A DNA stretch of 64,000 nt from Victivallales bacterium (GTDB lineage Bacteria > Verrucomicrobiota > Lentisphaeria > Victivallales > SZUA-371): assembly GCA_963677165.2 (NCBI GenBank), contig CAXXSX010000002.1:421988-485987 (forward strand), written 5' to 3'. The notes below the pieces were generated by a model. It did not search any database, was not told where the DNA came from, and worked only from the letters and a program-made list of their open reading frames with translations. Of this stretch, positions 30,034 through 58,750 are shown piece after piece. The first letter of the stretch is position 1. Each line of letters begins with the position of its first letter. The position numbers and the translations under genes were made by a program.

Positions 30034-31146
30034 ATGCATAATAAACAAAAAGAATTGACTGCCGATTTTTCATCTCCGGCATATATCCGGATGGTTGACT
30101 ATCTAACGGAAAAAATCCGTTCTGGGAGTCTGCAACATGGAGAAATATTACCTCCGGAAAAGAAGCTGGCTGAACAATTGAGCTGCAGTCGAGTAACATT
30201 GCGGCACGCATTACAGATTCTTGAGCAGAAAGGATTAATCATTAAACGTCGAGGGCGCAATGGCGGTAATTTTATTAGTTACAGGCCAGATCCGGCCAAT
30301 GTAAAAAGAAAAAATATTGGTTTGATAAGCAATATCACCTCCCCGGCTACAGAACCGTATTTTCTTCATCTATTATCAGGAATTCAGAATGAACTAGTGG
30401 ACAAAGCGAAGCTGCACCTCATTGCGAAGGAAAGCAGGGAATTCCAGGATGTTATGAATGATAACACTATTGATGGCATGTTGCTCATCGGGTGTGGGCG
30501 ATCAGATGAACAAATATATGAATATCTTGAACGAACAGGTATGCCCCATACTATAATCAATTCATACTTTGACTTCTATACCAACCGAGGTTTTGTGTCA
30601 TGTGATTCCGACAACTTTGCCGGTGGGCTTGAAGCAATGAAACACCTCATAGAACTGGGGCATACCCAAATCGGCTACATCGGTTGCTCCAATGAGCGTT
30701 CAAATCAGCTGGATCGTTACAATGCATATAAGCATGCATTAAGCGAAAACAATATTCCATTCAATTCCGGCCTGGTCCATATCTGTGAAAACAATGCTCA
30801 AAACGGTTTCTCATACAATACTGCCATTGACATGTTACAACAAACAAACAAACCGACCGCAATTTTTGTTGCTGGTTATTATATGACGATTGAAGCAATT
30901 CAAGCAATCAAAGAGTGCAATTTACGCGTTCCGGATGATATTTCCATTGTGGGGTTCGACGATTTTAACATCAGTATGCACATTTCTCCACCACTAACTA
31001 CTGTGCGCCAGCCTCTTGAGGAAATTGGCCGGCAGTCAACCCAACAGCTTCTGGAATGGATTACTTCGGGTATAGTAAAAAATAGACAGTTGACATTACC
31101 AACAGAACTAATCATTCGTGGAAGTACGGCTCCGCTGAAAAATTAA
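30034..31146 (+). CDS. GntR-type HTH fused to a LacI/PBP-like sugar-binding domain (regulator)
   Basis: GEILPPEKKLAEQLSCSRVTLRHALQILEQKGLIIKRRGRNGGNFI is a GntR winged helix. The C-terminal region (...ISIVGFDDF...PPLTTVRQP) is a LacI-type ligand domain. Confidence 0.8.
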   Translation: MHNKQKELTADFSSPAYIRMVDYLTEKIRSGSLQHGEILPPEKKLAEQLSCSRVTLRHALQILEQKGLIIKRRGRNGGNFISYRPDPANVKRKNIGLISNITSPATEPYFLHLLSGIQNELVDKAKLHLIAKESREFQDVMNDNTIDGMLLIGCGRSDEQIYEYLERTGMPHTIINSYFDFYTNRGFVSCDSDNFAGGLEAMKHLIELGHTQIGYIGCSNERSNQLDRYNAYKHALSENNIPFNSGLVHICENNAQNGFSYNTAIDMLQQTNKPTAIFVAGYYMTIEAIQAIKECNLRVPDDISIVGFDDFNISMHISPPLTTVRQPLEEIGRQSTQQLLEWITSGIVKNRQLTLPTELIIRGSTAPLKN

Positions 31147-31310
31147 TTAATCATTAAGCTGTATAAGAAAATTTAAGGAAAACATATATGCTAAGATAAT
31201 ATAATCTGATCAGGCTACTTACCGTAAAGGCAAAACATTAAAATCAAATTACCCGACTGTTTTTAGTCGCAATATCATATAAAAAAATAAACCACAGGAG
31301 CTATAAAAAG

Positions 31311-32495
31311 ATGAATTATTATCCATGGAAGCAATTAAGATTTTTAGTCTTTCTGTCCTTGGGACTCGGTTTTATTGTACCCAATGTCCAGGCAAATGAC
31401 TTAACAAAAGTCGTAAAATCCAAAAACTTTAAATATCGAATTATGATCGACAAAGTAAATGGAACACCAAAGCTGAAGGAATCAGAATTTGCGCTAGTGG
31501 CAGCCCAGAAATTCAATATCATTTGTCCCCGCCACGGAGCAGAAGATCCGGTAACGGCGGAACGAAGCGCCAAACTGGCCGGCAAGTATAACCTCATGTG
31601 GATGGGATGGCTCCGAGGAACGCTTCGCACTTCTGACAAGGATGACCAATACACTCTGGAAGACGGGTTCACTTTTAACATATGCAGCCCTAACTCGAAA
31701 CGTCTTTATGACACCTTGAAAAAACGGATTATGACGTTAGCAAAGCTCTCTCTGCGTTATCCTGTACTAGGCGCATTTATGGATTTCGAACTATATGCCA
31801 GGCCACTTCCCAAAACCTACTGGTGTGGTCATGCATACACCTTCAGTTATGATCTTAACAGCTTGAAATCATATTGCCGGACTAAAGGCATAAAATTGCC
31901 TCCATTAACACCCGACAAGCGTGCAGACTGGCTCAACGGCAAGGGAAAACTGGACGACTACAAGCAATGGCAGATAAATGAATGGCGAAAATCGTTACAT
32001 GAACTGCGCGCTACTATTGATAAAGTCAATCCAGATTTTCAATTTGCCATATACCCGGGCCGCTGCTATACACGATATATCGACAAAGCCGTATGGCCGG
32101 AGCTAAGCACGAAACAGGCCCCCGCAATCTGCGCAGAACACTATACCTACGGCAAAGGAGCACCAAAAAAGGATACGAACAAAAACTACTGGAAGATTTC
32201 CGATGAGGAAGGACTTAAATTGAATAATGAGTTTATAATCCGCCGTCGTAATATATTCCGTTCAAGTCCCATTCCGTTCAAAATTATTGGGGGGCTTGAC
32301 CCAATCGACAAAGGAGGTAAAAATCCTGTTTTCATGGCGGCAACCGCCGTTCAAATGTCAAAAATAGGAAATGGCTACTGGGTTTTCTACGAAGGATTAA
32401 AAACTAATTCAATACTGTCAAAAAAATTCGAAAAGTGGTTTACTATTGCCAATGAAGCAATTGAAAACGGAACATTTCATATGCGGGTTTACTAA
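31311..32495 (+). CDS. Secreted hypothetical protein (possible glycan-active enzyme)
   Basis: Signal peptide (LVFLSLGLGFIVPNVQAND). 394 aa, no family recognised. It lies directly upstream of a pseudopilin-like gene. Confidence 0.6.
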   Translation: MNYYPWKQLRFLVFLSLGLGFIVPNVQANDLTKVVKSKNFKYRIMIDKVNGTPKLKESEFALVAAQKFNIICPRHGAEDPVTAERSAKLAGKYNLMWMGWLRGTLRTSDKDDQYTLEDGFTFNICSPNSKRLYDTLKKRIMTLAKLSLRYPVLGAFMDFELYARPLPKTYWCGHAYTFSYDLNSLKSYCRTKGIKLPPLTPDKRADWLNGKGKLDDYKQWQINEWRKSLHELRATIDKVNPDFQFAIYPGRCYTRYIDKAVWPELSTKQAPAICAEHYTYGKGAPKKDTNKNYWKISDEEGLKLNNEFIIRRRNIFRSSPIPFKIIGGLDPIDKGGKNPVFMAATAVQMSKIGNGYWVFYEGLKTNSILSKKFEKWFTIANEAIENGTFHMRVY

Positions 32496-32594
32496 ATGAA
32501 AACAGGCAGGATGTGCGTTCTCTACGCTCGTCCTGCTTGACATGTCACTTAATTAATATATAATTTTATAGAAAATAAATCGGAGTACAAAAAA

Positions 32595-33320
32595 ATGAAA
32601 AAAATTCATGATTTTACACTCATCGAATTGCTGGTCGTGGTAGCAATAATAGCTATTTTAGCCAGTTTGCTGCTCCCCTCTCTATCCAGAGCCAGAGATA
32701 TGGCAAAGACAGCAAGTTGCATCTCCAACCTGAAGCAGCAAGGTAATGCTATTATGCTATATAACTCAGATAATAATGGCTATATGCCGCTCGTGCAGGC
32801 AAATATTTTTGACTGGAACGGACCAAGCAAACGGCGATGCTGGATCCAACTAATTGAAAGCTATGTTGCCGGCGGGAGAAACCCGTGGGCACGTTATAAA
32901 AATTTGTCTCCAGCGCCAGTATTCTTCTGTCCCGGGGATAAGACTCATGCTCAAGTCTACACATATAGCAACTATGGCTCAACATTGACAGCAGGCAATT
33001 ACATGTATAACAGCAGACTTGGCGACTATGCCGGTTATCCAAGCAATCAGAATTATAAACCACGTCTAATCTCAAGGTGCAAATCGCCATCAACCTCAGC
33101 AACTACTGTGGACGGCAACTGCCAGTCTCTCGCCCGTATTAAATTCGATATTTCGTCTCGGGACTCATTGCTTCAGTATGTTGATATGCGACACAGCTCA
33201 AAAGGAGCCAATACACTTTTCGCTGATGGCCATGCTCAAACTTTACCAAAGCTAACATCAATGCCGGAAGCCACTATCTGGAAATATTTCTGGATAAACC
33301 ATTTGAATAATTGGCCCTAA
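32595..33320 (+). CDS. Pseudopilin-like protein: prepilin-type N-terminal segment plus a C-terminal H-X9-DG-type domain (DUF1559-like)
   Basis: [30 protein letters not shown] at the N-terminus, [15 protein letters not shown] at the C-terminus. Confidence 0.85.
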
Positions 33321-33434
33321 TCTCTGCCGGCTTTAATATTCCCACATATTGTTCAATAACTTATCTGTCTTTTTAACAGACTGACAGGCTTTTACTATAC
33401 ATAATTCAATGATAAAAAAATTTCAGGAGTATAA

Positions 33435-34370
33435 ATGAAAATAACTGCTACCTTTATAGATGAAATAAGTCATGATATTCCACACCAGAATTGGGGTCCA
33501 CGAGAATGGGACAAAGACTTTCAGGCCATGAAAGCCATCGGTATTGATACCGTAGTAGTAATCCGTTGTGGCTGGAAACGTTGGATGGCTTATCCCAGTA
33601 GAATACTGGCAGATAAAATTCAGGGCTATATGCCGGAAATTGACCTGATCGATCTTTTTCTGCGTTTAAGCGAGAAATATGAAATGAAACTCTTTTTAGG
33701 CTTGTATGATTCCGGCTTTTACTGGATGCAGGGCGACTGGAATAAAGAAATTGAATTAAATATGCCAGTAATCGATGAGGTTTGGGAACGTTATGGCAGC
33801 TATCCTGCTTTTGGCGGCTGGTATCTGTGCCAGGAAGTTAGCCGTAGAACCGGCAAAGTGGTCGAACTGTATGCCAAGATGGGACGTCATTGCAAGGAAA
33901 TCTCTGGCGGACTCCCCATTCTGATTTCTCCCTATATCCAGGGCAACAAGACCGGTGCCTGGGACCCTCGAGTACTTTCCGGCGAGCAGAGTATCTTGCC
34001 GGAAGATCATGAACGCGAGTGGAACAACATTCTTGATGGCTTAAAAGACATTGTGGACATCGTGGCGTTCCAAGATGGTCATGTGGACTTTTTTGAACTC
34101 AGCTCCTACTTGGAAATAAACCGTAAATTAACGGACCGGTTTAACATGCAATGCTGGACAAACTGTGAAACATTTGATCGGGAAATGCCTATCAAATTCC
34201 TGCCACTAAAATGGGAGAAGGTATTACTGAAATTGAAAGCAGCAGAACAAGCTGGAGCTTGTAAAGCGATTACTTTTGAATTCTCTCATTTTATGAGCCC
34301 AAATTCCTGCTATCCGCAAGCCCATGGACTATATAACCGTTACTGCGAATATTTTGATATCAAAGCATAA
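33435..34370 (+). CDS. DUF4434-like glycoside-hydrolase-like TIM-barrel protein, cytoplasmic
   Basis: ITATFIDEISHDIPHQNWGPREWDKDFQAMKAIGIDTVVVIR matches my recollection of the DUF4434 N-terminal pattern. No signal peptide. Confidence 0.55.
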   Translation: MKITATFIDEISHDIPHQNWGPREWDKDFQAMKAIGIDTVVVIRCGWKRWMAYPSRILADKIQGYMPEIDLIDLFLRLSEKYEMKLFLGLYDSGFYWMQGDWNKEIELNMPVIDEVWERYGSYPAFGGWYLCQEVSRRTGKVVELYAKMGRHCKEISGGLPILISPYIQGNKTGAWDPRVLSGEQSILPEDHEREWNNILDGLKDIVDIVAFQDGHVDFFELSSYLEINRKLTDRFNMQCWTNCETFDREMPIKFLPLKWEKVLLKLKAAEQAGACKAITFEFSHFMSPNSCYPQAHGLYNRYCEYFDIKA

Positions 34371-35317: not shown

Positions 35318-36442
35318 ATGAATACGAATTACACCAAAGCTTCCGTCCAGGAGATAGCCGGACGCATCAAGTCCGATATCCGTCACGGCGGCTATATGCC
35401 AGGTAGCAAACTACCCGGCATGCGGACTTTGAGTGAGAAACTCCGAGTTGACCGCAATATCATCCGGGCAGCCCTCGACAGTCTTGAAACCCAAGGGGCA
35501 GTAACCAAAAAAGCACGCAGTGGAGTCTTTGTCTCTCCCAATATGTTTTCCAGCAATCTTCGTGAGCTTTATATTTATACACACTGTCAGGAAGGAACCA
35601 GACAAGTTTGCTATGTGGAACAGGCATTGGAACTTCATCGAAAATTCGGATACCGTCGTCGCTTCAATATAACGCTGCGTTATTCCGGCTGGAACAAAAT
35701 GTCCAAGGATTTATTGCAAAGTGAACTGCTTAAGGCACGGACAGGCAATGCCACTATTCTCGTGATCAGCGGCGCCATAATTGATGAAGAAAAGCTCGAG
35801 ATTTTAAATAAAATGGAGCTACCGTATTTGGTGATAGGAGAGAGCCAGCATGATCTATCTCGCTTTCGTTTCAATCAGGTATATGCCAGCTGCGCGGCAA
35901 AGGGAATGGATATCGGTAATTTCATAATCCGTAGTCCTTATCAAAATATCGCCTACTTCGCCGTTCCCCAAAATACAATGACCTATGAGGAAGAATATAT
36001 CGATATACTCAAAAAGTATATGAGAAATTCTGAAAAAGAACTAATCGTGAAACGTTTGCAATATGACCAGCATCTTCGGGCCAAATGCTCCCGCTATTAT
36101 GAGGTGGCTGTACGGGAACTGTTGGCTTCGGGCTCACGCCCCGACCTGCTTCATTTTTCGGACGAAATCGATGTTCAGGCTATTGCCCGAATTGTAGGGG
36201 AATACGGACTGCGCGTTCCAGAAGATGTCAACATTCTAGCTTGCTCCCAAAGCATGAAAAATCCAATTCCTGGAATTTTTGTGGTCCAGACTGACTTTGA
36301 TAAATTTGCCAACGAAGTTTTCGATCTATGTGAAAAAATTGCCGATGGAAAATGTGAACCAGAAAAACACAATCTCACACATCTAGTTTCCAATGAAATT
36401 TTGGAACTTAATTTCCAAAATCTCATAAAATTATTCTATTGA
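35318..36442 (+). CDS. GntR-type HTH regulator with a C-terminal PBP-like domain
   Basis: GSKLPGMRTLSEKLRVDRNIIRAALDSLETQGAVTKKARSGVFV is a GntR winged helix. 374 aa. Confidence 0.75.
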   Translation: MNTNYTKASVQEIAGRIKSDIRHGGYMPGSKLPGMRTLSEKLRVDRNIIRAALDSLETQGAVTKKARSGVFVSPNMFSSNLRELYIYTHCQEGTRQVCYVEQALELHRKFGYRRRFNITLRYSGWNKMSKDLLQSELLKARTGNATILVISGAIIDEEKLEILNKMELPYLVIGESQHDLSRFRFNQVYASCAAKGMDIGNFIIRSPYQNIAYFAVPQNTMTYEEEYIDILKKYMRNSEKELIVKRLQYDQHLRAKCSRYYEVAVRELLASGSRPDLLHFSDEIDVQAIARIVGEYGLRVPEDVNILACSQSMKNPIPGIFVVQTDFDKFANEVFDLCEKIADGKCEPEKHNLTHLVSNEILELNFQNLIKLFY

Positions 36443-36704: not shown

Positions 36705-37373
36705 ATGAAGAAAAAATACTTCACACTGGTCGAGCTCCTTATAGTGATTGCAATTATCGCAATTCTTGCAGCAATGTTACTCCCAGCATTGAACAAAGCC
36801 CGAAAGCGAGCCAGGAGCATTACCTGTTTGAATGCATTGAGGACTAGCGGTCAATTTTTCTGTATGTACACCAATGACTTCAACGGAGTTCTTCCGTCAC
36901 AGGATGCGACGAGTGGGACAGGGCGTTGGATTTCTGTAATGAGTATGCTGTACTACGGAGCTAAGTCTACCGATTACGCAAGCACGCGCAGCACTATTGC
37001 CGGACGCAAAGGCTTCCGCTGTCCTGAAAACGCCACGAAGGCCACCGTCCAGGCATGGACTGAACGGGTTAATTACGGGATGAACAACCTGTTAGGTGGG
37101 GCCGGGAATGCTAAAAATCATTTTCCAATCAATAAAGCAAGAGCACCATCACAAACATTGGTAATAGGAGACGGTCAGTGGAGTGACTCCGGCTGGTTCA
37201 ATAGTCATTTGACAACTAATGGCAGTAGCTATGCAGAGATGCTGGTTCAGGGGCCATCCATTATTCATCAAAACCAAACCTCCATTCTTATGATTGATGG
37301 GCATGTAGAACGGAGAACATTGCATAATATACCTTTATCTCCAACACACACGTTTTGGACAGGGTTAAATTAA
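36705..37373 (+). CDS. Pseudopilin-like protein (prepilin-type N-terminus plus H-X9-DG)
   Basis: [29 protein letters not shown] at the N-terminus, [15 protein letters not shown] at the C-terminus. Confidence 0.85.
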
Positions 37374-37387
37374 CAAGGGAGATATTA

Positions 37388-45614: not shown

Positions 45615-45623
45615 AATGTAACC

Positions 45624-46367: not shown

Positions 46368-46384
46368 TGTTCAGTCTCTTTTTG

Positions 46385-47482: not shown

Positions 47483-47527
47483 CTTACCTCGGATATGTAA
47501 ATTATTACAATTAATTAAAGTTAATTT

Positions 47528-47734: not shown

Positions 47735-48589
47735 ATGACTACTACTCGGCATGATTACGTTTTAGATCGCAAAGAATTGATATACAATAGCAGTGAATGC
47801 GGTAAGCTCTCTTTCCAATATGAGGAAAATTTAACTTCAATCAATTGTCGTTTGATTGAAGCTACCTTAGTGGAACATCAAAATCATCTTCTGGCTACAC
47901 ATCATCATCCTCCGCCATTCGCCAGAATTTTTCTTCCAGTTAACGGTAAAGCTGTAATTACTCATCTGGAGCAAGAAATGGTTTTACAACCTGGATTAAT
48001 ATATTTTTTCCCCAGTAACCTGACTTTTGATGCTGATTACAGGCAGGGTTTTTCACAGTATTATATTCATGTCTACTATTCGGATGGATTAAATATTCCG
48101 CTTTTTTCCGATCTGAATTCAATAAAGATTATTGATAACAAACTTTTATATCAAAATATTTGTCAGAATAGTGCTGGTATATCCACGCCGCATTTATTGA
48201 ACAATCTTTTATCTCTTGCGCTGATATTACTAGAAGGTAATTATGAAAGTCTTTCCGGTAATATGCAAAAATTCAAGGATTTTTCTGAGTTATTAAAATT
48301 TTTGGACAGGACTCCGATGATTGAGCACACCATTGCTAATTTAGCCATGTTATATTCAGTTAGTCAGGAAGCTTTATCCAAACGTTTCAGGCGTAAAACC
48401 GGAATTACATTAAAAAAATTTTTACTCGAACAAAAACTACAGAAAATTCAAGAGTTATTGCTTAATCGAAATTATAGAATTGATGAAATTGCTTATCAAA
48501 CAGGATTTTCATCGCCTCAATACTTACATCGCTTCTTCAAAAAAAACATGGGGTGTACCCCTGTTGAGTATCGCAATACCCATGCTTAA
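47735..48589 (+). CDS. AraC-family transcriptional regulator
   Basis: C-terminal double HTH (...IDEIAYQTGFSSPQYLHRFFKKNMGCTPVEYR). The N-terminus is cupin-like. Confidence 0.85.
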   Translation: MTTTRHDYVLDRKELIYNSSECGKLSFQYEENLTSINCRLIEATLVEHQNHLLATHHHPPPFARIFLPVNGKAVITHLEQEMVLQPGLIYFFPSNLTFDADYRQGFSQYYIHVYYSDGLNIPLFSDLNSIKIIDNKLLYQNICQNSAGISTPHLLNNLLSLALILLEGNYESLSGNMQKFKDFSELLKFLDRTPMIEHTIANLAMLYSVSQEALSKRFRRKTGITLKKFLLEQKLQKIQELLLNRNYRIDEIAYQTGFSSPQYLHRFFKKNMGCTPVEYRNTHA

Positions 48590-48902: not shown

Positions 48903-49637
48903 ATGAGAAACAAAAAGAATTTCACTCTCATCGAATTGCTCGTCGTGATCGCGATTATAGCAATTTTAGCGTCAATACTTTTACCGACACTTGGCCGGGC
49001 AAAAGAAATAGCAAAATCAATTAAATGCGTCAACAAGCAAAAACAAATCAGCGCGGCATTGGGAATGTTCTCTGACGATTTAGGCGGTTACCTGTTGCCT
49101 TATAATACTTATGCAGCCAAAAGGCCTTATCAAACCGGTACAATGCCATATAATGAAGACTTACTGGACGGTTTTTACTGGTACGTAATGCTTCACCGGA
49201 AATATCCGGGACTTAGTGGAAAAAACTATTCTACTTTTCGTTGTCCTCCTTCCGACCTTGTAAAAAATGCTAATGCGACAGTAAAAGATCCCACAGGTAC
49301 AGGCATCAATATTGGTTACAACGTGCATATTAGTAAATATGCTACTGCCCAGCCGGCAGCATATCATACTTCAAAATTAAAGGCACCATCACAAACGATG
49401 CAGACCGCAGATGCCTGGAACGCCAAAATGAGTGGAACTGCTACTGGAAGTGTTTATGTTTCAGCCAGGGACAGCACTTATGACTCCATTCATTATCGTC
49501 ATTTAGGAAAAGCTAATATCAGTTTTCTTGACGGCCATGTTGAAACAAGATCTTTGAAACAGATTCCTCCGACCATTAATGCAGGGGGAGTCGGCAGTAC
49601 TGATGAATGTAAATTATTTTATTATGGACGTAATTAA
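48903..49637 (+). CDS. Pseudopilin-like protein (prepilin-type N-terminus plus H-X9-DG)
   Basis: [30 protein letters not shown] at the N-terminus, YRHLGKANISFLDGH at the C-terminus. Confidence 0.85.
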   Translation: MRNKKNFTLIELLVVIAIIAILASILLPTLGRAKEIAKSIKCVNKQKQISAALGMFSDDLGGYLLPYNTYAAKRPYQTGTMPYNEDLLDGFYWYVMLHRKYPGLSGKNYSTFRCPPSDLVKNANATVKDPTGTGINIGYNVHISKYATAQPAAYHTSKLKAPSQTMQTADAWNAKMSGTATGSVYVSARDSTYDSIHYRHLGKANISFLDGHVETRSLKQIPPTINAGGVGSTDECKLFYYGRN

Positions 49638-49885: not shown

Positions 49886-51892
49886 ATGCGTTTCTTCATA
49901 TCTGCATGTTTGCTGCTGCTTTCCAGCTTAGTCGTAAACGGAAAAAGCCAGGATCTTGTTGCACGTTCAAAAGCTTTTATGCGTCAAACCAGTAAAGATA
50001 AAATACGTTGTTTCTGGATATACTATAAAGACAAGTCTCCGGACTTCTTGCCTTTGCTTCCGACCTTAAAGCAGAACGGTTTTAATATGCTGGCTGTCGG
50101 AAATCGTATTTTCTGGGGAGCCACTCCATCTGATTCTCCATCAAATAAGCCATATTTTAAGACATTAGCTCCAGAGCAGACGGTCTATTTACGAAAAGTT
50201 GTCAGGGCCTGCAAAAAAAATGGAATTGTTCCTCTGATAATGATGATGACTTATTCCGATGAATACAATCTGCTGATCAAAGACAAAAAATATCGGAAGG
50301 TAATGGATAAAAACGGCATTGCCGATCGTTATCTGGCCTGTCCGGGAGACCTGGATTTTCTGCGAGGCATAGAGCTGCCGCGGATACAACTGGCCGCCCG
50401 GATATTAGCCGAAGAAAATATGGTTGGTGGTTTTCTCTATGAAACCGAAGCTTATTGTGCAAAGCCGCATTATCCCGGCTATGGCTCTTCAAAAACCGAG
50501 TTTTGTTATTGCGACCACTGTTTCGGCAATTTCATGAAACTTATCGGAGATAATGGAGCTTTGCCCAAACCATCACTTCGTTATCAATATTTAAGCAAGC
50601 GGGGACTGACCAAGCGCTATTCCGATTATATGATATCAATATATGAAAAAAATTATAAGTTTCTCCTGAAAGAAGCCCGAAAAATACATCCCGGCATGCT
50701 GGCCGGACTATATCAGAGTGCCATGGATGAAAACACGATAGGCTTTGCCCGGGCAACTGGAACGAAAGAATTACCGGCCATGCTGTTTTCGTCAACAGAA
50801 TATTTTGTTGGAATTAATCGGAAGGTATGCAACTTTGCTAACGCTTCCTCTACAGATGATTTCAAAAAATATCTAAAATCACAGAACGTGAATGTTCGGC
50901 TGCTTCCTGGTTTGTTGCTTGGTTCTTATTGGCCCAAGCAATATGCAGCAGAAACGGCCCAGGCATTGAAACATACTGATGGCTATTGGCTTTATGACGG
51001 TACTACCCTAAACAAGCCTTTTAATAAAGTGAAAACCAAGAATCCGGAAAATCGCAGTGAATATCGTTTATTAAGACCTGCTGAAGAATTTTTTAAATAT
51101 CTAGCCAAAGCTCATAAAACGAAAAGTTCCCTTTTGAACAATCCCCCCAGGAAAACTTTAAGTGAATTTACCTGTAAGATGAAATTGGACAAAAAAGCCT
51201 CTCAATTCACAGAGCCCAAAACGATTAATCCCGGTTGGGAACCAAGCGGTGATTTCCCGCAAAAGACTTCGGACGGTATTATTTTCCCCGCAGCGTCAAA
51301 GGATCATTCAGCATATTTCAATCGGTATATTGCCGGGGGCTTTTCGGAATTTCCTAAAGGTGGAAAATGGTATGGCTTTAAAGTCGATGTCAAGCATCTA
51401 GGTGGTCCTGAAGCTCGTATTGTGTCCCTCGGACATTCCTGGGGAAAACTCTATCCGGTTTGTTTTGACGGTAATTTTTATATTGCTCCCGGAGAACATA
51501 AAACGCTGTCTATTGCTATTAAATCCAGGCCATCAGCCAAATATTATTACCGATTTGGCTGCCGGACGGGAGAAGGAACTCTGGCGGCAAAGAATTTCCG
51601 TCTCATGCGACTTTCACGACTTGTCTATCGCAGTGCACCGGTAAGCTTGCCGCAGAACGACAAAGAACTATATCTTACATGGCAGGATGTGCCGTCAGTT
51701 TTCGAGTTGAGTTACGATATTTTCGATTTGCAGGATAACCTGCTTATGGAAAATTGCAATAGAAAAACGGATATTTCCGTGCTTGCTCAGACTCTGGATG
51801 TAAAAAAAGTTAAATTCAAGTTCAACTTCCTGCTCTCGAACGGGAAAAAAGAGATTCCCCCTTTCAAATTTTCCTGGTTGAAGATTAATTAA
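49886..51892 (+). CDS. Secreted 668-aa hypothetical protein (possible glycan-active enzyme)
   Basis: Signal peptide (MRFFISACLLLLSSLVVNG). No family recognised. It is flanked on both sides by pseudopilin-like genes. Confidence 0.6.
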   Translation: MRFFISACLLLLSSLVVNGKSQDLVARSKAFMRQTSKDKIRCFWIYYKDKSPDFLPLLPTLKQNGFNMLAVGNRIFWGATPSDSPSNKPYFKTLAPEQTVYLRKVVRACKKNGIVPLIMMMTYSDEYNLLIKDKKYRKVMDKNGIADRYLACPGDLDFLRGIELPRIQLAARILAEENMVGGFLYETEAYCAKPHYPGYGSSKTEFCYCDHCFGNFMKLIGDNGALPKPSLRYQYLSKRGLTKRYSDYMISIYEKNYKFLLKEARKIHPGMLAGLYQSAMDENTIGFARATGTKELPAMLFSSTEYFVGINRKVCNFANASSTDDFKKYLKSQNVNVRLLPGLLLGSYWPKQYAAETAQALKHTDGYWLYDGTTLNKPFNKVKTKNPENRSEYRLLRPAEEFFKYLAKAHKTKSSLLNNPPRKTLSEFTCKMKLDKKASQFTEPKTINPGWEPSGDFPQKTSDGIIFPAASKDHSAYFNRYIAGGFSEFPKGGKWYGFKVDVKHLGGPEARIVSLGHSWGKLYPVCFDGNFYIAPGEHKTLSIAIKSRPSAKYYYRFGCRTGEGTLAAKNFRLMRLSRLVYRSAPVSLPQNDKELYLTWQDVPSVFELSYDIFDLQDNLLMENCNRKTDISVLAQTLDVKKVKFKFNFLLSNGKKEIPPFKFSWLKIN

Positions 51893-51896
51893 AAGA

Positions 51897-52637
51897 ATGG
51901 AGTTACAAAAAATGAAAAAGAAATATTTTACTCTCCTGGAATTGGTTCTTGTAACAATCGCGGCGATATCACTTTTATGTGGAACATGCCAGATACTCAG
52001 AATGGCAGTACTGCAAAATAATATTTTGACATGTGCCGATCAGCAACGAAAATTAGGCCAATGCATCGTTAAATTTTCTGCCGATGCAGACAACTGGCTG
52101 TTGCCCCGCAATACTGACGCGGCCTATATTCCATTTAAAAGTCGTGACTATACCCCGCTTAACCAGAAACTAATAGGCAACAGATGGTTTGAAACATTAT
52201 CAAAGCTATATCCTGAAGTGGTAAAATCCCCTTTCAGCTGCGTACGCTGCCCGGCTTATACCGGGCCGAAAAATTATCTTTCCACAAAGGCTGAACCAGT
52301 CAAGTCCGGAGGAAATATCGGATATAACGGAGCGACTGGTATTTATGAAAACAAAAATTTTTATCACAAAATGAACCAGCTGCCTTCTCCGTCCAAGACA
52401 TTATGTACTTCCGACTGTTGGAATTCGGTTAATGGCAACGCTGATTATATCGTCACTGGCAAAACTGGCAGGTACAACCAAGTTCATTTCCGTCATCAGG
52501 GCAAAACTGCCAATATTGGTTTCTACGATGGACATGTCGAGAATATTACCGCAGAGAAATTACCGGAAAACCCCACTGCAGGCGCAGCCTCTGCCGCTAA
52601 AACATTCTGGGGTAGAAAGACGTTACAAATACCTTAG
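51897..52637 (+). CDS. Divergent pseudopilin-like protein (degenerate hydrophobic segment, H-X10-DG retained)
   Basis: ...[26 protein letters not shown] at the N-terminus, FRHQGKTANIGFYDGH at the C-terminus. An alternative start lies at 51912. Confidence 0.75.
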   Translation: MELQKMKKKYFTLLELVLVTIAAISLLCGTCQILRMAVLQNNILTCADQQRKLGQCIVKFSADADNWLLPRNTDAAYIPFKSRDYTPLNQKLIGNRWFETLSKLYPEVVKSPFSCVRCPAYTGPKNYLSTKAEPVKSGGNIGYNGATGIYENKNFYHKMNQLPSPSKTLCTSDCWNSVNGNADYIVTGKTGRYNQVHFRHQGKTANIGFYDGHVENITAEKLPENPTAGAASAAKTFWGRKTLQIP

Positions 52638-52660
52638 AATGATGGTTGGAAAATAATAAC

Positions 52661-55600
52661 ATGATAATTGATTTTAGAATTGATTTTGGCTATTCAATGC
52701 TTTATACTCGTCGCTATTCACATCCGATTTGTGTATGGGACGGACATATGGACTGTCGTCACGGAAAAATACTCCGGATGTACAAACTGGAGTATCCGTT
52801 TAACTACTCCGGTCCTGCCTATGATGCCGAAGAAACTCCATTGCCTAATCATAGCTGGCAAATTACTACCCGCCGCAATTTAGCCGGTTTAAGGATCATT
52901 GCGGAAGTTACGGACAACTCAATATTTGTCTTCCACTCCAGCATGGGAGATTTTGAAATTCCTTACGAGCGTATTGCGCGGGAAAAATATTTCAATATTC
53001 CAGTTGGAGACAGTGAAATACATTCCAGCTTGATTATTAACGAAAGCAATTATTATTGGTTTCAGCCGTCTTTTCGGCCGGAGCAACAGGTATTTCATCC
53101 TGCTGATATGAATTTGCTGCGAAAAAATCATTTTCGAATGGATTGTGCATGGCTGCCTCCACAGGGAGAAGTCGATTTTATCATCAATGTACCGAATGCC
53201 GATTGTGTGCCTGATCAAATCGCAGAAGGCCTTTTGCACCTGGTTGTTATGGCGGCATCGGCTCCGCACAATGGAACACCAGACTCTGTACATGACCAAT
53301 TCCCCATGGCGTTGGCTTTAGACGGACAAAATATTGATGTTTTTGATCAATACCTGCGTGATCATGACTTGACAATGCAGATTATGACTGATATTTGGCG
53401 AAGATTTGCAGTTTCTCCCGGAAAACACACACTAACACTGAAAAATTTACACCAATTTTTTTACCTGACTTTGCACAAGGTTATTTTTGAAGTCAAATCT
53501 ACCCGCCATCTTCAAATGACCCTTCCACACTGGTGTCTGTGTAATGAAACATATACCGGCAAAATTTATGCGACCCAAGCGGATACGGTATCTTTGGAAT
53601 TTCAGAATCAGGAAATGCAGTTGGAATTAAAATCCGGTTGGAATGAATTCGATTTTGTCCTTTCTCAATCCGGACAAAATATTGAATTCTGTGCCATCTC
53701 CGGAACTGTTCAGAGTTCTGAAATTATTCCGGAAGTCTATGCCTTGAGCCAGGAAGCTCCAATAGTCAAAGTCGGTTGTGATATGACCACTGTTCCACAC
53801 GATGATAATGGTTTTATGGACTGGCTATTAGATTACATTGTCCGCACTCAAATGGGAAACTTTATTCTATTCAGGCCCTTTCATTACGAAAAGGTGGATA
53901 ATTTTGTAATGACTAAAGCTAATGCCAAATCAATGGCGCGTTTCGGCAGTTTTTGTAAACAGCATCGCCTTTATGCTGAACTGGCATCATCATTCATCGA
54001 ACCCGACATAGTAAAAACAGCCGGGAATTTTTTCAGAGCCGCCGGAAAACACGAATATCCCGGTTTATCCTATCAGGCTAAATCGAGACCGCCTTTTCGT
54101 AGTTACGATCTGAAAGAAGCGGCAGAAAAATTTATCTCCTGCCTACGGGAAAACATTCAAAAAACCAGACAGTTTTCTCCTATGGTATCTTATGGGGATG
54201 CTTCCGGAGCCGCCAGGTACTGCTATCTGGCAGGCGTGGATTTTCTGCGTTCTGAAACCTTGGTGGGACATACTATGCATTTATGTTCCCTGGCACGTCC
54301 AGCCGCTGAAAGTTTAGGGAAAGGCGACTGGGGCGTACACATTGCAATTCAACACAATCTGCAGCCTTTTACCAAAGACCACCTGGGGCTGTTTTTCGTT
54401 TCTTTGCTGCAGCCATGGATGATGGGAGCAAAGGTTTTTGATGAAGAAGACAGCCTGTTTTGTCTTTTTAAAGAAGAACGGCAAAGCTGGGATGATTACT
54501 GCACAAAAGGCAAGCGTGAAATGCTGCGTTGGTTTTACCGATTTGTTCAGACTCATCCCCGCCAGGGAGATCCCGTTCGCAACTTTGCGTCGATCGAAGG
54601 TCGCTATGCTCCGCCTTTTCATTCTTTCAACGCATACAGTGATCGAGACTGTTCGATTTGGGGCGCTTTCGGCAACGAATCAGAACAATGGCAATACCGG
54701 GAGCCCGAAAAAATTCGTCTGGTATTGGAAATGCTTATGCCTGGATATTTTTTGGATCCATTTAAGCAGAAGCATGAAAAAACTCGTTTTTTCTTTTCCG
54801 GAACGCCTTACGGTGATTTTGATCAGGTGCCAATCGAAGCGGATGAAAACTATTTGTCAAAATATAAGCTGCTGTTATTGGGCGGTTGGAATACGATGCA
54901 GGCAGAAGATCATCAAAAGCTTAAAGACTATGTCATTAACGGTGGTACACTTTTCACTGGCATCATGCAGTTTGTTACAGATACCAGTAGAGATTTTCTG
55001 CCGGATACAACGAATGCAAAACTTTACCGGGATGGTGATTTAAGCGAACTATGCGGTGTCAAAATTCTAGGTGCTGGACCTGAATTTTCCGGTCAGTGGC
55101 AAACGGCACAGAAAACAACTTTCAATCAGGATGAATTAAGCAGTCTGCCGACCTTCCCTGAACAATACGACTTATCCTGCCGTATTGCTGATATCGAACT
55201 TACAGATGCCGAGGTAACGGTTTGGGATGGCGAAAATGGTTTGCCGTTAATTATCCGAAAGAAAATCGGTAAAGGATGTGTCTATTTACTGACTTTATGG
55301 GCCTATATGGGACAGAAGCAGACTTTAGAGCTGGTAACATCTTATCTGGAGCGTTTGCTCAAAGATGTCCGTCCTGATATCCGGGTACAAAATGCTGATA
55401 ATGATGTATTCTGGAGTACCTGGAATGATGGGAGTTTGTATATGCTCAATATAAACTGGAGTCGCCCCGGCAGTCATAAGGATGTTCGAATAATAACGCC
55501 TGAAACACAATTCGATATGCAATTAGCGGAACGCCATGCGTACATTATATATACTCTGCCTTTCGGCGCTTTTTATTTGCAAAACAATTCTCATGCCGAA

Positions 55601-55777
55601 ATTATACAAACTGATGACGAACAGGCTGAAATAAAATTGTTCGGTTCTTCACAGGATACTTTATATTTCCATGAAGGAACTGACTCTCCTCCGGTAAAAC
55701 ATGTTGTGGAGTTTAACAATCATGCTACTGAAATTATTTTAATATTAAATAAATCTCAACTCAAGGCAAAAAAATGA
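52661..55777 (+). CDS. Cytoplasmic 1038-aa protein of unknown function (possible glycoside-hydrolase-like)
   Basis: Long uninterrupted ORF with no signal peptide. ATG at 52661 (the ORF track uses the TTG at 52646). Its stop overlaps the sulfatase start. The C-terminal LLLGGWNTMQAEDHQKLKDYVINGGTLFTG resembles the GH42-type trimerisation / GATase-like domain. Confidence 0.6.
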   Translation: MIIDFRIDFGYSMLYTRRYSHPICVWDGHMDCRHGKILRMYKLEYPFNYSGPAYDAEETPLPNHSWQITTRRNLAGLRIIAEVTDNSIFVFHSSMGDFEIPYERIAREKYFNIPVGDSEIHSSLIINESNYYWFQPSFRPEQQVFHPADMNLLRKNHFRMDCAWLPPQGEVDFIINVPNADCVPDQIAEGLLHLVVMAASAPHNGTPDSVHDQFPMALALDGQNIDVFDQYLRDHDLTMQIMTDIWRRFAVSPGKHTLTLKNLHQFFYLTLHKVIFEVKSTRHLQMTLPHWCLCNETYTGKIYATQADTVSLEFQNQEMQLELKSGWNEFDFVLSQSGQNIEFCAISGTVQSSEIIPEVYALSQEAPIVKVGCDMTTVPHDDNGFMDWLLDYIVRTQMGNFILFRPFHYEKVDNFVMTKANAKSMARFGSFCKQHRLYAELASSFIEPDIVKTAGNFFRAAGKHEYPGLSYQAKSRPPFRSYDLKEAAEKFISCLRENIQKTRQFSPMVSYGDASGAARYCYLAGVDFLRSETLVGHTMHLCSLARPAAESLGKGDWGVHIAIQHNLQPFTKDHLGLFFVSLLQPWMMGAKVFDEEDSLFCLFKEERQSWDDYCTKGKREMLRWFYRFVQTHPRQGDPVRNFASIEGRYAPPFHSFNAYSDRDCSIWGAFGNESEQWQYREPEKIRLVLEMLMPGYFLDPFKQKHEKTRFFFSGTPYGDFDQVPIEADENYLSKYKLLLLGGWNTMQAEDHQKLKDYVINGGTLFTGIMQFVTDTSRDFLPDTTNAKLYRDGDLSELCGVKILGAGPEFSGQWQTAQKTTFNQDELSSLPTFPEQYDLSCRIADIELTDAEVTVWDGENGLPLIIRKKIGKGCVYLLTLWAYMGQKQTLELVTSYLERLLKDVRPDIRVQNADNDVFWSTWNDGSLYMLNINWSRPGSHKDVRIITPETQFDMQLAERHAYIIYTLPFGAFYLQNNSHAEIIQTDDEQAEIKLFGSSQDTLYFHEGTDSPPVKHVVEFNNHATEIILILNKSQLKAKK

Positions 55778-57213
55778 AGAAGAAAAACATTCTTTATATC
55801 ATGACCGATCAGCAGTGTCGTAATACGCTTGGACTTTATGGCCTTTTGCCAGTAAAAACACCACATCTTGACAGTTTAGCTGCCGATGCGATGCGATTTG
55901 ATCAGGCATATACCGTGTGTCCGCTTTGTACCCCGGCACGAGCCTCTATGTTAACTGGACGTTACCCGCACGCTCACGGATTGTTATCGAATTTTGCCGT
56001 TTGGCCGGATTCTGACTTTCCGGCTGATACAAAATTACTGAATCATTATCTAAAGTCTCAAAAATATCGTACCGGTTACATTGGCAAATGGCATTGCGGC
56101 GAATCCCAGGGACCTTCAGATTTTGGTTTTGAAGGATTGAGCAATCAGGGCGTATTGGGTTACGGCGGGGCATGCCGGACTCGTGAATATGAGGACTATT
56201 TGCAGAAAAATCATTTGGAACGAAATGAAATCATTTCCCAATATGATTATTACGGAGGTACTTTTAGCGGGTATTCCCGTGGAGATATTCGTGCCAATCA
56301 AGACTATTTTTTAAGTTCCTATGCCATGGATTTGCTGGATACGTTTGAGCAGGAAAGTCCGGATCAGCCATGGTTTTTGTTTTTGTCGTTTTGGAATCCG
56401 CATTCTCCGCTGATTCCCCCGGAAGAGTATCGTGAGCTTTATTCTCCTGAGTCGATAGAATTGAGCGGAACTTTGCATGAAGATTTGTCGGCAAAACCCG
56501 AATATCAGGCATATTTTCGCGACAATTACTGTAATACGGCCTGGACCGAAAATGACTGGAAAAATATCCTTTGTTCCTACTACGGACAAATCACTTTCCT
56601 TGATGCTCAGATCGGACGCTTGTTGGAGTATCTGAAAAAGCAGGGAACCTATGATGATACCTTAATTCTCTTCAGTGCTGACCATGGAGACTATCTCGGA
56701 GCCCATGGTGGTATGCATGACAAAGAAAGAGCCCTTTATGAAGAAATTATGAAAGTTCCCTTGATCGTAAAACTACCCCAAGGAGAATCTCATCCTGGAG
56801 TTTGCCATAAATTTGTTTCTAATATGGACTTAGCTGCCAGTTGTCTCGATTTTGCTGGAATAGAAATACCGGATAATTTTCATAGTCGGTCATTATTGTC
56901 GCTTGCGAGAAAACCCGAAAGCGAGTGGGATGATGATTTCGTCGCAGAATTCAACGGACACAAATATTTGGCCTCTTCACGAATGGTGCGTTTCAGCCAC
57001 TGGAAATATTGTTATAATCCTGGAACGAAAGATGAATTGTACGATCTTTCTGTGGATTCGGGAGAACAATATAACTTGATTGATAAACCGCAGTATACCG
57101 AAATTGTAAAAGAAAGCAAAGATCGTTTGCTGAAGTGGATGCAGAAAACAGATGATAATCTTTGCAACTGGTCGCAAAATTATCTTTCTCAATCTGGGAT
57201 AGCCGCCCAATAA
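55774..57213 (+). CDS. Cys-type sulfatase with no signal peptide (predicted cytoplasmic)
   Basis: NILYIMTDQQ..., and CPLCTPARASMLTGRYPH with the C-x-P-x-R formylglycine motif, here CTPAR. Further family motifs: GKWH and ADHGD. Confidence 0.85.
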   Translation: MKKKNILYIMTDQQCRNTLGLYGLLPVKTPHLDSLAADAMRFDQAYTVCPLCTPARASMLTGRYPHAHGLLSNFAVWPDSDFPADTKLLNHYLKSQKYRTGYIGKWHCGESQGPSDFGFEGLSNQGVLGYGGACRTREYEDYLQKNHLERNEIISQYDYYGGTFSGYSRGDIRANQDYFLSSYAMDLLDTFEQESPDQPWFLFLSFWNPHSPLIPPEEYRELYSPESIELSGTLHEDLSAKPEYQAYFRDNYCNTAWTENDWKNILCSYYGQITFLDAQIGRLLEYLKKQGTYDDTLILFSADHGDYLGAHGGMHDKERALYEEIMKVPLIVKLPQGESHPGVCHKFVSNMDLAASCLDFAGIEIPDNFHSRSLLSLARKPESEWDDDFVAEFNGHKYLASSRMVRFSHWKYCYNPGTKDELYDLSVDSGEQYNLIDKPQYTEIVKESKDRLLKWMQKTDDNLCNWSQNYLSQSGIAAQ

Positions 57214-57238
57214 TAACACTCTATCTGGTAGATATTTA

Positions 57239-58750
57239 ATGAATTTCAGACCTCCAAAAGGTAAATCGTTGTGGGACAGTTGGATTTATGTCCAAAACGA
57301 AAATACTTATCATCTTTTTTATCTTGAAACCGTTGATCGGATATACGATCATATTGGTCATGCCGTTAGTACCGACCTTATAAATTGGGAAGAACTCCGT
57401 TCAATATCGGTCAGCGGAGCTCCCGGCTCCTGGAATAGTCGGATTACGCTCACCGGCATGGTAACACCGTTCCAGGGGAAATACTATATGCTGCTTGGTG
57501 GCTATGCCCCTGAAAACCCTGACAAGGCAATAGAAATTATTGGACGGTATGTATCCGACGACCTTGAAAACTGGCAGGAAGACAAATCATTTCCGTTGTT
57601 GAAGCCATCTTTTCCCTACATGACGGAATGTGATATTTCCTGTGATTGCCGTCACTGGCGTGATCTTTCGCTGTCTTATGACCAAAACAACCAATGGTTT
57701 GATGGCTATCTGATGACGAAGGTAAAACCGGTATCTCCAGATGACTTCGGAACTGCTGTTGGTCATATACGTTCTCGGGATCTGGTGCATTGGGAGATGT
57801 TGGAACCAATCGCGCGTCAAAAACATTTCTATAATATGGAAGTTCCGGAGGTATTTGAATTTAATGGTCGATATTATCTTACTTTTTCAACCAACAGCCT
57901 TACCGGGTTAAAGATAAATTCATCTCGTGGAACAGCATTGCGTGGTACATTTTATTTAACCTCGTCTTCCCGTAATGGCCCTTTTACTTTGCCTCCTGAT
58001 CCATTTCTGATCGGTAGCGGTCATGGTCACTGGGAATCTTATGTGGGGCGAACCCTGGAACAGGATGATCAAAGAATACTTTACCATCACATGGGAAATC
58101 CATTCGAAGTTCGGCCAGCATGGGGAACGCCTAAAAAACTGGCATCTGACAGCGAAGGCAATCTGCATTTGGAATATCTACCGGTATTGCAAAAAATGGA
58201 AAACGGAAAATCGTTTCCTTTAAAAACGCATATTGAGACTGGTGACCGACAAGATCTTATTGGATATTGGAAACGAAACAATAAAGATTATTTTGGTAAG
58301 AACTATTTAGCTGGTACATCCTGCCGGATTGCTGACGATGTCGATAACTGTCATTTCAAGGTGGATTTGTTTCCCGAGGGTAATGGAATGTTTGGTATTA
58401 TTTTCCGGCAGAGCGAATATCAGGCAGGAGCATTTATACTGGACTTGGAGCATCAAAGTATTTTTGTTGGTAATGCAGATATTCCTCCTGACTATAACTA
58501 TGCCCATGGAATGTTTGGTTGGGACTTTTGTATCCATGACCAAACACAACTACCAGAAATGATCAAAGGAAAATATGAGCTGCGGATATTCCTTCGTAAC
58601 GAGTTCTGCGAAGTATATGTAAATGATATTTGGTGTTTTTCTGCTACTTTACCCAAGCTGGCTTCATGCGGAGCTTTAAGTTTATATGTCGAACGGGGAG
58701 AAGCACACTTTGAGAATCTTCACCTAGCCCAACTTAATCCACTACTTTAA
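57239..58750 (+). CDS. Five-bladed beta-propeller glycoside hydrolase (GH32/GH43-like) with a C-terminal beta-sandwich, cytoplasmic
   Basis: The N-terminal LWDSWIY..NTYHLFYL and later FNGRYYLTFS blade-like repeats are present. The C-terminal jelly-roll-like region has EVYVNDIW. The family is not resolved by eye. Confidence 0.5.
   Translation: MNFRPPKGKSLWDSWIYVQNENTYHLFYLETVDRIYDHIGHAVSTDLINWEELRSISVSGAPGSWNSRITLTGMVTPFQGKYYMLLGGYAPENPDKAIEIIGRYVSDDLENWQEDKSFPLLKPSFPYMTECDISCDCRHWRDLSLSYDQNNQWFDGYLMTKVKPVSPDDFGTAVGHIRSRDLVHWEMLEPIARQKHFYNMEVPEVFEFNGRYYLTFSTNSLTGLKINSSRGTALRGTFYLTSSSRNGPFTLPPDPFLIGSGHGHWESYVGRTLEQDDQRILYHHMGNPFEVRPAWGTPKKLASDSEGNLHLEYLPVLQKMENGKSFPLKTHIETGDRQDLIGYWKRNNKDYFGKNYLAGTSCRIADDVDNCHFKVDLFPEGNGMFGIIFRQSEYQAGAFILDLEHQSIFVGNADIPPDYNYAHGMFGWDFCIHDQTQLPEMIKGKYELRIFLRNEFCEVYVNDIWCFSATLPKLASCGALSLYVERGEAHFENLHLAQLNPLL

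Follow-up and report, generated by a model that had tools for sequence, protein, structure and literature searches.

Type IV pilins specialised for a substrate are known from competence pseudopili (ComP), which serve DNA uptake, from the chitin-regulated pilus of Vibrio and from the lectin-module pilins of Streptococcus sanguinis. Such pilins bind a polymer. Retraction can then bring it through the envelope, or a polysaccharide under degradation induces the pilins. They occur as one or few per genome and are encoded with their own machinery. In Klebsiella, the pul secreton is co-regulated with a glycanase, pullulanase, by the sugar regulator MalT. The bindosome of Sulfolobus consists of sugar-acquisition proteins with pilin-type signal peptides that depend on the pilus-like Bas assembly system (PMC3047682). 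A further family with a prepilin-type N-terminus, the H-X9-DG/DUF1559 family (TIGR04294, PF07596), is found in bacteria of the Planctomycetota-Verrucomicrobiota-Chlamydiota (PVC) group and has a C-terminal H-X9-DG motif. It comprises 56,289 clusters at 50% identity (E <= 1e-30). In Planctopirus limnophila it is the largest paralog group, with 68 genes, and its function was called unknown in a 2023 essential-gene study (PMC10632474). Here we describe four genes of this kind in a stretch of 64,000 nucleotides (the window) from a Victivallales bacterium (assembly GCA_963677165.2, contig CAXXSX010000002.1, positions 421,988 to 485,987 of the forward strand).

The four genes lie in a glycan and amino-sugar island of about 32 kb (26.3-58.75 kb of the window), together with five one-component regulators, signal-peptide proteins and carbohydrate-active enzymes (CAZymes). 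The region comprises three regulator-controlled glycan-degradation modules that resemble polysaccharide utilization loci (PULs), each with its own H-X9-DG-type gene with a class III signal as an integral, conserved component. The usual order in such modules is a one-component sugar regulator, the pilin-like gene, a large and often secreted CAZyme, further enzymes and sometimes a symporter of the sodium/solute symporter family (SSF). Like the PULs of Bacteroidota, they have a dedicated regulator, then a non-catalytic envelope protein encoded first and then glycan-specific enzymes, and the modules are duplicated and diversified per substrate. Unlike those PULs, the island lacks both a TonB-dependent receptor and SusD, the modelled fold of the envelope protein is that of a pilin, and inner-membrane transport, where present, is by SSF.

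By analogy, the closest functional precedents appear to be the Sulfolobus bindosome, the competence and chitin-regulated pili and the lectin-module pilins. The bindosome proteins, however, are archaeal ABC solute-binding proteins, whereas the window has no solute-binding fold, ABC partner or Bas-like genes. In contrast to the substrate-specialised pilins, the window has four members within 32 kb, each wired to a different catabolic operon, and the family is very large. With a probability of roughly 0.4, we favour the reading that the pilin-like proteins serve as subunits, each specific for a substrate, of a common pilus or pseudopilus by which glycan is captured at the envelope.

The pilin-like proteins and their modules

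The four open reading frames (ORFs) are all on the + strand and encode H-X9-DG pseudopilin-like proteins 1 (32595..33320, 241 aa), 2 (36705..37373, 222 aa), 3 (48903..49637, 244 aa) and 4 (51897..52637, 246 aa). They are homologous paralogs of 222-246 aa with pairwise identities of 26-34%, and protein 4 is a tandem paralog of protein 3 (34% identity, BLAST E = 4e-35). A basic leader of 5-6 residues, the sequence F-T-L-x-E-L, a hydrophobic helix and a C-terminal H-X9/10-DGH motif are common to all four. The leaders MKKIHD, MKKKY and MRNKKN precede FTLIEL, FTLVEL and FTLIEL in proteins 1, 2 and 3, respectively. The motif is H-X10-DGH in proteins 1 and 4 and H-X9-DGH in proteins 2 and 3. Residues F7, T8, L9, E11, C42, a Trp, a Cys-Pro pair, H200 and D-G-H are invariant in the four-way alignment. 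ORFs, alignment and hidden Markov models (HMMs) therefore agree with the original prediction, made from the letters of the window, that four genes with a pilin-like N-terminus and an H-X9/10-DGH motif lie at these positions.

HMM support for family membership is real but borderline. The prepilin N-terminal domain model TIGR02532 (cut-off 16.3) scored proteins 1, 2 and 3 at 21.5, 20.1 and 23.0, all above the cut-off. With PF07963 (cut-off 21.2), protein 3 reached 31.1 and proteins 1 and 2 were just below at 19.0 and 20.3. The H-X9-DG model TIGR04294 (cut-off 19) gave 21.0 for protein 3, 17.3 (just below) for protein 1 and no reported match for proteins 2 and 4, though the motif could be aligned in all four. 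Scores with PF07596/DUF1559 were 19.8 and 18.0, below the gathering threshold of 23.3, and covered short N-terminal stretches only. Residues 1-60 matched the GspG, ComGC and PilA models best; the GspG equivalog model TIGR01710 failed with 36.3, 23.7 and 32.2 bits against 88.85 and aligned only over positions 2-61 of the 134 in the model. PF07596 is found in many homologues at 30-37% identity. Many close homologues carry PF07963 as well and are named 'prepilin-type processing-associated H-X9-DG protein' at JGI. Judged by motif and homology, the window proteins belong to the H-X9-DG/DUF1559 superfamily, with which they share the prepilin-type N-terminus and the C-terminal H-X9-DG. They differ from it in scoring at or below most curated cut-offs, and coupling to regulators and CAZymes is significant only in loci from Lentisphaerota.

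Protein 4 matched none of the HMMs tried, because its N-terminal helix is degenerate (ELVLVTIAAISLLCGT, with one extra residue). The positions of the Cys, Trp, Cys-Pro and H-X10-DGH residues are retained. With such a helix, protein 4 may no longer be able to assemble.

Like GspG/PulG and type IV pilins, the window proteins have a short basic leader, F+1, E+5, about 20 hydrophobic residues and, in the model, a long N-terminal helix on a four-stranded sheet. Unlike them, they score far below equivalog cut-offs, their globular part is unrelated as judged by Foldseek, and they have no Gly at -1. Their genes are also single, one per catabolic operon, and do not lie in a gsp or pil machinery operon. 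The AlphaFold (AF2) model of protein 3 has a mean predicted local distance difference test score (pLDDT) of 78.6 and shows a helix at residues 9-59 followed by four beta-strands, which we read as a pilin-type fold. The H...DGH motif occupies the last two strands and the intervening turn. Against the Protein Data Bank (PDB), Foldseek returned only matches to the N-terminal pilin helix, with E > 1, and no solute-binding proteins.

Across the family, all 213 members compared have E+5, and all but one (212 of 213) have F+1. H-X(8-11)-DGH was found in 170 of 217 relatives, nine being the most frequent spacing. In 38 divergent members the top-residue frequency was 0.93 for residues 7-30, 0.60 for residues 198-216 and 0.19-0.35, with indels, for residues 61-197; the globular regions at about 60-197 and 217-end are hypervariable and contain indels. 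A nearly invariant helix with a conserved H-X9-DG hairpin and a hypervariable rest is what one usually sees where an assembly module is joined to a surface that is exposed and diversifies.

H200, D210, H212, C42 and C114 were invariant across the same 38 members. These residues could form a metal site made of the His...Asp-Gly-His motif and the conserved Cys pair, so that the protein would be an envelope-anchored metal-dependent enzyme that modifies glycan. Two His and one Asp are a common metal ligand arrangement. GspG-type pseudopilins, however, bind structural calcium at the last beta-hairpin, which is where the H-X9-DG motif sits, and neither HMM scans nor Foldseek gave a structural or sequence match to any enzyme. 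The remainder of the globular part is hypervariable, which also argues against catalysis, and we regard an enzymatic role as very unlikely.

Position -1, before F+1, is occupied by D, Y, N and Y in proteins 1 to 4, and the canonical Gly is missing. Gly or Ala takes this place in 24 of 26 members from Verrucomicrobiota and in all 11 from Planctomycetota. The residue is Gly in just 2 of 32 Lentisphaerota members, the others being diverse (N, S, K, R, D, Y and more). From the alignment, either the peptidase specificity may be relaxed in Lentisphaerota or the proteins may be uncleaved and anchored. An uncleaved protein would be bitopic in the inner membrane, N-in/C-out, with a periplasmic domain that passes oligosaccharide to a symporter or co-senses it, and in function it would be comparable to the bindosome proteins of Sulfolobus or to a solute-binding protein with a membrane anchor. 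The non-Gly residues of 30 of 32 Lentisphaerota members, as against Gly or Ala in 35 of 37 of the other two phyla, are consistent with such an anchor, and so are the SSF symporters that are co-oriented in several modules (see below). DUF1559 also has the Pfam identifier SBP_bac_10, and archaeal sugar-binding proteins with class III signal peptides are known (PMC3047682). However, without cleavage and packing of the pilin type it is hard to see why E+5 and F+1 should be invariant, the modelled fold is pilin-like and not the two-lobed solute-binding fold, and there is no ABC transporter partner. We consider an uncleaved, anchored protein rather improbable.

The regulators that the original prediction assigned to the three modules were recovered with Pfam. 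Modules 1 and 2 (30034..31146 and 35318..36442, both +) start with a GntR helix-turn-helix (HTH) domain fused to a LacI-type sugar-binding domain (for module 1, GntR 5.1e-16 and Peripla_BP_3 1.2e-36; for module 2, GntR and Peripla_BP_3), and module 3 starts with an AraC-family regulator (47735..48589, +; HTH_18 5.2e-20). The three neighbours that had been called large signal-peptide proteins do have signal-peptide-like N-termini, a call that here and below is based on inspection and hydrophobicity only: a 394-aa protein (31311..32495, +) in module 1, a 1115-aa protein (37388..40735, +) in module 2 and a 668-aa protein (49886..51892, +) in module 3. A candidate sigma-70 promoter, TTGACA-16-TATAAT, which is a consensus match only (12/12), lies at 32537..32564 (+), 30 nt upstream of the gene of protein 1. 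It is the sole 12/12 match in the scanned stretches 29700-41500 and 47400-59200.

Recurrence of the modules in Lentisphaerota

We compared 80 loci encoding relatives, taken from GTDB representative genomes, 27 of them from Lentisphaerota. The query was an alignment of three of the sequences, as the four-sequence version was too divergent, and family members were flagged by a separate HMM. In Lentisphaerota, the gene at position -1 encodes a regulator with GntR and periplasmic-binding-protein domains, a LacI or an AraC regulator in 10 of 30 cases, versus 11 of 248 elsewhere (odds ratio 10.8, p = 7.5e-6). No regulator was found at +1 in the 27 loci. The +1 gene is at least 600 aa long in 14 of 30 cases, versus 13 of 130 for genes at least 4 positions away (p = 1.5e-5), and is signal-peptide-like in 12 of 30 versus 22 of 130 (p = 0.011). 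Pfam families of the 114 neighbours at +/-1 were Peripla_BP_3 (6), AraC (4), GntR (3), DUF4838 (3), sulfatase (2), heparinase II/III (2) and GH123_N (2), and also GH20. The 148 genes at least 5 positions away belonged to housekeeping families, and no neighbour family was seen there twice. The family genes are genuinely coupled to regulators and to genes for large secreted proteins or CAZymes, in a way that depends on position and strand and recurs across Lentisphaerota genomes.

The coupling was not seen in the sampled loci of Verrucomicrobiota and Planctomycetota, where a regulator stands at -1 in 1 of 39. It is therefore a feature of Lentisphaerota and not of PVC bacteria as a whole: the proposal of a locus-level coupling beyond random scatter of paralogs held for the Lentisphaerota loci, and its extension to the entire PVC group did not. 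We found no published description of this coupling in the literature outside subscription journals.

The modules vary in their enzymes from locus to locus. Locus L083 has three tandem modules of a LacI/periplasmic-binding regulator, a pilin-like gene and a DUF4838 gene. The regulators are 25-35% identical to one another, the enzymes 25-29% and two of the pilins about 40%, the third pilin aligning over its N-terminal part only. Since each of the three components has paralogs in the other modules, the whole trio was copied as a unit. Locus L084 has DUF4838, pilin and BNR genes beside a divergent AraC gene and also pilin, GH123-like and BNR genes beside an AraC gene. In L090 a LacI gene is followed by a pilin gene and a GH2 gene of 1694 aa, and in L091 a pilin gene, a 227-aa ORF and a DUF4838 gene lie beside a GntR gene. 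L089 has a LacI gene, then GH130, pilin, DUF4838, GH130 and GH5 genes, and further on an SSF gene. The order is GntR, pilin, 1030-aa protein, SSF, GDSL and FG-GAP in L081, and regulator, pilin, LamG/GH123-like protein and, further on, SSF in L018. In L001 the regulator and pilin genes are followed by a gene for a GH78 without signal peptide, and in L030 the gene after the pilin encodes a sulfatase without signal peptide.

Three loci match genes of the window directly. In L027 a homologue of the DUF4434 gene of module 1 (3e-77) lies inside a GntR/pilin module. In L086 and L087 the order is regulator, pilin, a homologue of the 668-aa protein (39% and 34% identical) and a GH32N/43-like enzyme; compared with these loci, protein 4, the 1043-aa protein and the sulfatase have been inserted in the window ahead of the GH32/43-like gene. 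A GH32N/43-like gene near a 668-aa homologue is also found in L088, which is uninformative about the upstream order because just 748 bp, with no ORF, precede the homologue. We tested the pilins beside the 668-aa orthologues as orthologues of protein 3, and they are not.

A family so expanded, with 56,289 clusters and 68 genes in P. limnophila alone, might fall beside CAZymes and regulators by accident in genomes where glycan genes are dense. However, within one and the same set of loci the enrichment depends on position and strand, housekeeping genes dominate at least 5 genes away, the modules are duplicated as units, and synteny is kept at 34-39% identity. Chance co-location is already disfavoured by these observations and is the least probable of the explanations considered here.

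The enrichment at +1 for large and signal-peptide-like proteins bears on another explanation. An inducible pseudopilin variant could act with a shared type II secretion system to export, or tether to the surface, the large exo-enzyme encoded with it. The MalT-controlled pul secreton and pullulanase of Klebsiella provide a precedent. N-terminal residues 1-60 of the window proteins match the GspG model best (TIGR01710, 4.9e-9 and 9e-8), all three DUF4838 partners in L083 have signal peptides, and type II secretion system protein F was one neighbour in the sample. Both the induction of 'secretion system-related' genes by laminarin in Lentisphaerae WC36 and zth2 (PMC11361711) and the up-regulation of a planctomycete type II secretion system on fucoidan (PMC11685898) also point to secretion or display. 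About 60% of the +1 neighbours, however, are not signal-peptide-like, for example the products of 33435 and 52646, the sulfatase of L030 and the GH78 of L001, and the GspG score is far under the equivalog cut-off (36 vs 88.85). The first-in-operon position and the consensus promoter would also suit an abundant subunit better than an adaptor, and we know of no type II secretion system in which pseudopilins are specific for a cargo. Secretion or display is the main rival to capture, possible but on the whole unlikely.

Another locus, L085 (10001-18476), has two H-X9-DG genes that bracket genes for MotA/ExbB, DUF2149 (ExbD-like) and CobN (1584 aa), with no CAZyme. This context is normally tied to TonB-type energised uptake and, as a single case, hints at uptake as well.

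Proposed glycan capture, and transport

The original prediction took the lack of a transporter in the island as a sign that the pilin-like proteins take part in import. The lack itself was confirmed by Pfam and by a scan of the frames for transmembrane segments. No stop-to-stop frame at 25-60 kb has two or more transmembrane-like segments, the island ORFs of at least 100 aa include no Pfam transporter, TonB-receptor or SusD family and no large beta-barrel candidate was seen, and Pfam scans of the island found no ABC genes. The island is bounded by a prophage and a tRNA-Ser gene on the left and by a tRNA-Ser gene and rpsB on the right, so that no transporter is hidden just outside it within the window.

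The import argument drawn from this lack did not survive the comparison. In L018, L064, L081 and L089 an SSF symporter gene lies downstream of the family gene in the same orientation, and L003 has one close to its family gene, so lacking a transporter does not characterise modules of this type. The pilin-like protein as a replacement for a transporter was rejected, both on account of these symporters in sister modules and since a single-span protein cannot serve the inner membrane. The original prediction took co-transcribed carriers to speak against its idea. The co-oriented SSF genes of sister modules go part of the way to this, with no carrier gene beside this island within the window. A bitopic protein cannot bring substrate across the inner membrane to the enzymes of the cytoplasm, namely NagB, the sulfatase and the GH32/43-like enzyme, and a carrier encoded elsewhere is needed. 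The pilin-like proteins can only act in the periplasm, at the outer membrane or on the surface.

Four of the SSF symporters are unusually long, at 680-780 aa, and have a common N-terminus (..DW.IV.IPV..). They are encoded at L003:2524-4848, L018:15578-17629, L064:10890-13178 and L089:16961-18798.

Capture of glycan by the pilin-like proteins could proceed as follows. A sugar-responsive regulator would turn the operon on, and the pilin-like protein would enter the inner membrane through its invariant hydrophobic N-terminal helix. The invariant E+5 suggests that it would then be cleaved before F+1 and be assembled by a shared machine, similar to a type II secretion system or type IV pilus and encoded elsewhere. 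The hypervariable globular part (about 60-197 and 217-end) would form a substrate-specific fibre surface. This surface would capture the cognate glycan at the envelope and hold it for the co-induced enzymes, or deliver it to them by retraction. The products would cross the inner membrane by conventional carriers, which may be SSF in the sister modules and, for this island, a carrier encoded elsewhere. The pilin-like protein would in this way fill the role of SusD or a surface glycan-binding protein, not that of an inner-membrane transporter.

Capture is favoured over secretion or display because the gene after the pilin gene often encodes a protein without signal peptide (33435, 52646, the L030 sulfatase and the L001 GH78), which suggests a partnership at the level of the substrate and not of the protein. 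The first-in-operon position and the 12/12 consensus promoter candidate at protein 1 would fit an abundant subunit. Capture is also favoured because studied relatives are without the TonB system and because planctomycetes are documented, or proposed, to internalise polymers. Lentisphaerae WC36 and zth2 lack ExbB (PMC11361711), no TonB-dependent receptors were found in Kiritimatiella (PMC5148204), and fibre-mediated uptake of polysaccharide has been proposed for planctomycetes (PMC12673574).

Several points weigh against capture. Glycan binding, filament assembly and cleavage are steps that we infer from sequence. No gene for an assembly ATPase, platform protein, secretin or peptidase is present within the 64 kb window. 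Processing by a prepilin peptidase is uncertain, as Gly at -1 is missing from the window proteins and from 30 of 32 Lentisphaerota members. Foldseek found no lectin-like or carbohydrate-binding-module-like relative of the globular part. Pilins beside orthologous enzymes are not mutual closest relatives, so that co-evolution with a fixed substrate is not visible. Finally, the 80 loci are best matches to the window proteins and not a random sample of the family, and ORF calls in these loci are our own and crude.

A bolder form of capture may be imagined by analogy with DNA uptake by competence pili. In it, a retractile pseudopilus with interchangeable H-X9-DG subunits would fish polysaccharide through a secretin into the periplasm, which would amount to 'selfish' uptake independent of SusC/D and TonB. 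We hold this form to be doubtful.

Remaining genes, flanks and implications

The other proteins of the modules are of diverse types. The 394-aa protein of module 1 (N-terminus MNYYPWKQLRFLVFLSLGLGFIVPNVQA) has no known family, with no Pfam match and no PDB sequence match, and PDB sequence searches with the 668-aa protein and the 1043-aa protein likewise gave nothing usable. A DUF4434 protein without signal peptide (33435..34370, +; Pfam 3.1e-72) is encoded after protein 1. The 1115-aa protein of module 2 had been predicted as a GH-A-like enzyme. A match is present, in a region like glycoside hydrolase (GH) family 5 or clan GH-A at residues ~490-650, but it is weak (Pfam Cellulase 4.5e-4, below the cut-off; a GH5 mannanase in the PDB, 1.9e-3).

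In module 3, the 668-aa protein is GH-like: its model (pLDDT 63, moderate confidence) has a (beta/alpha)8 barrel with a beta-sandwich and resembles GH5, GH13, GH42 and GH66 enzymes. Its family is rare, with 8 homologues. The 1043-aa protein (52646..55777, +) has no signal peptide, and a region like the GH42 trimerisation domain (Pfam Glyco_hydro_42M, 1.4e-6) is the sole domain recognised in it. The two proteins were considered as paralogs from duplication of a pair, which was rejected because BLAST gave no match between them. The module continues with a sulfatase (55774..57213, +) that resembles SGSH (Sulfatase 2.7e-53, SGSH_C 3.4e-22; N-terminus MKKKNILYIMTDQQ) and ends with a conserved GH32N/GH43-like beta-propeller enzyme identified with Pfam (57239..58750, +), both without signal peptide.

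The island starts with a gene for a putative secreted BD-FAE/alpha-beta-hydrolase esterase (26333..27298, +; BD-FAE 7.6e-47), which has an N-terminal hydrophobic segment. An N-acylglucosamine 2-epimerase (AGE; 27517..28695, -; GlcNAc_2-epim 3.6e-58) and a LacI-family regulator (28774..29745, -; LacI and Peripla_BP_3) follow. A 77-aa ORF (34729-34962, -) with a partial AraC HTH (E ~1e-3) in the 950-bp gap between modules 1 and 2 is probably a remnant of a lost AraC regulator. Between modules 2 and 3 there are genes on the - strand for a 605-aa AXE1-like esterase without signal peptide (41421..43238; AXE1 1.6e-9), a GFO/IDH/MocA oxidoreductase (43306..44502), a NagA-like N-acetylglucosamine-6-phosphate deacetylase (44706..45614), the glucosamine-6-phosphate deaminase/isomerase NagB (45624..46367; Glucosamine_iso 2.5e-20) and a ROK-family protein with an N-terminal winged HTH, like NagC (46385..47482; ROK 1.1e-32, HTH_24). 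The NagA-like protein has 302 aa and is N-terminally short. It had no Pfam match and matched a solved NagA with E = 1.7e-26 at chain residues 55-300. The N-terminal beta-sandwich part is truly missing, since only 9 bp separate the gene from nagB.

Among the enzymes of the original prediction, the epimerase and the esterase at 26333 lie outside the range of 30034-58750 that it covered, and the ORF at 46385 is the ROK/HTH protein and not nagA, for which the NagA-like gene at 44706-45614 is the candidate.

The left flank of the island (1-25109) is a P2/HP1-like prophage with genes for the large and small terminase, the GPO scaffold, the P2 capsid, tail and baseplate. Its gene order is rearranged relative to P2, with a portal-like gene among the tail genes, and its right end carries genes for a Dam-type N6-adenine methyltransferase and a C5-cytosine DNA methyltransferase, beside tRNA-Ser(tga) (25702-25791), which lies between prophage and island. 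Right of the island there is non-coding DNA, then an integrase fragment, tRNA-Ser(gct) (60274-60363), rpsB and tsf. The fragment, a 115-aa ORF (59846-60193) with the integrase N-terminal domain DUF6538 only, lies beside tRNA-Ser(gct) and appears to be what is left of an integrative element. Two tRNA-Ser genes thus bracket the glycan island. Ribosomal protein S2 (60815-61771; 318 aa) has a C-terminal extension of about 90 residues rich in Lys, Ala and Glu. EF-Ts, the product of tsf, shares 82% identity with its counterpart from a Victivallales metagenome-assembled genome and 68-71% with those from other Lentisphaerota, which places the organism in Victivallales.

The architecture is solid and general, and the function proposed for the pilin-like proteins is a hypothesis that can be sharply tested. 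The order regulator, pilin-like gene, large enzyme provides a simple rule for spotting loci of the PUL-like type in such genomes. In guts and sediments, complex and sulfated glycans are broken down by Lentisphaerota and other PVC bacteria. In Bacteroidota this ability is explained by a TonB-dependent machinery, parts of which are missing from the Lentisphaerota and PVC members studied: two Lentisphaerae strains lack ExbB, and Kiritimatiella lacks the receptors. A retractile pseudopilus, if true, would explain both the expansion of the family in PVC bacteria and feeding on polymers without TonB-dependent transporters. H-X9-DG/DUF1559 is one of the largest uncharacterised protein families, and its wiring of one gene per operon, together with the joint duplication of modules, turns a family of paralogs into a genetically testable hypothesis on the handling of polymers at the envelope.

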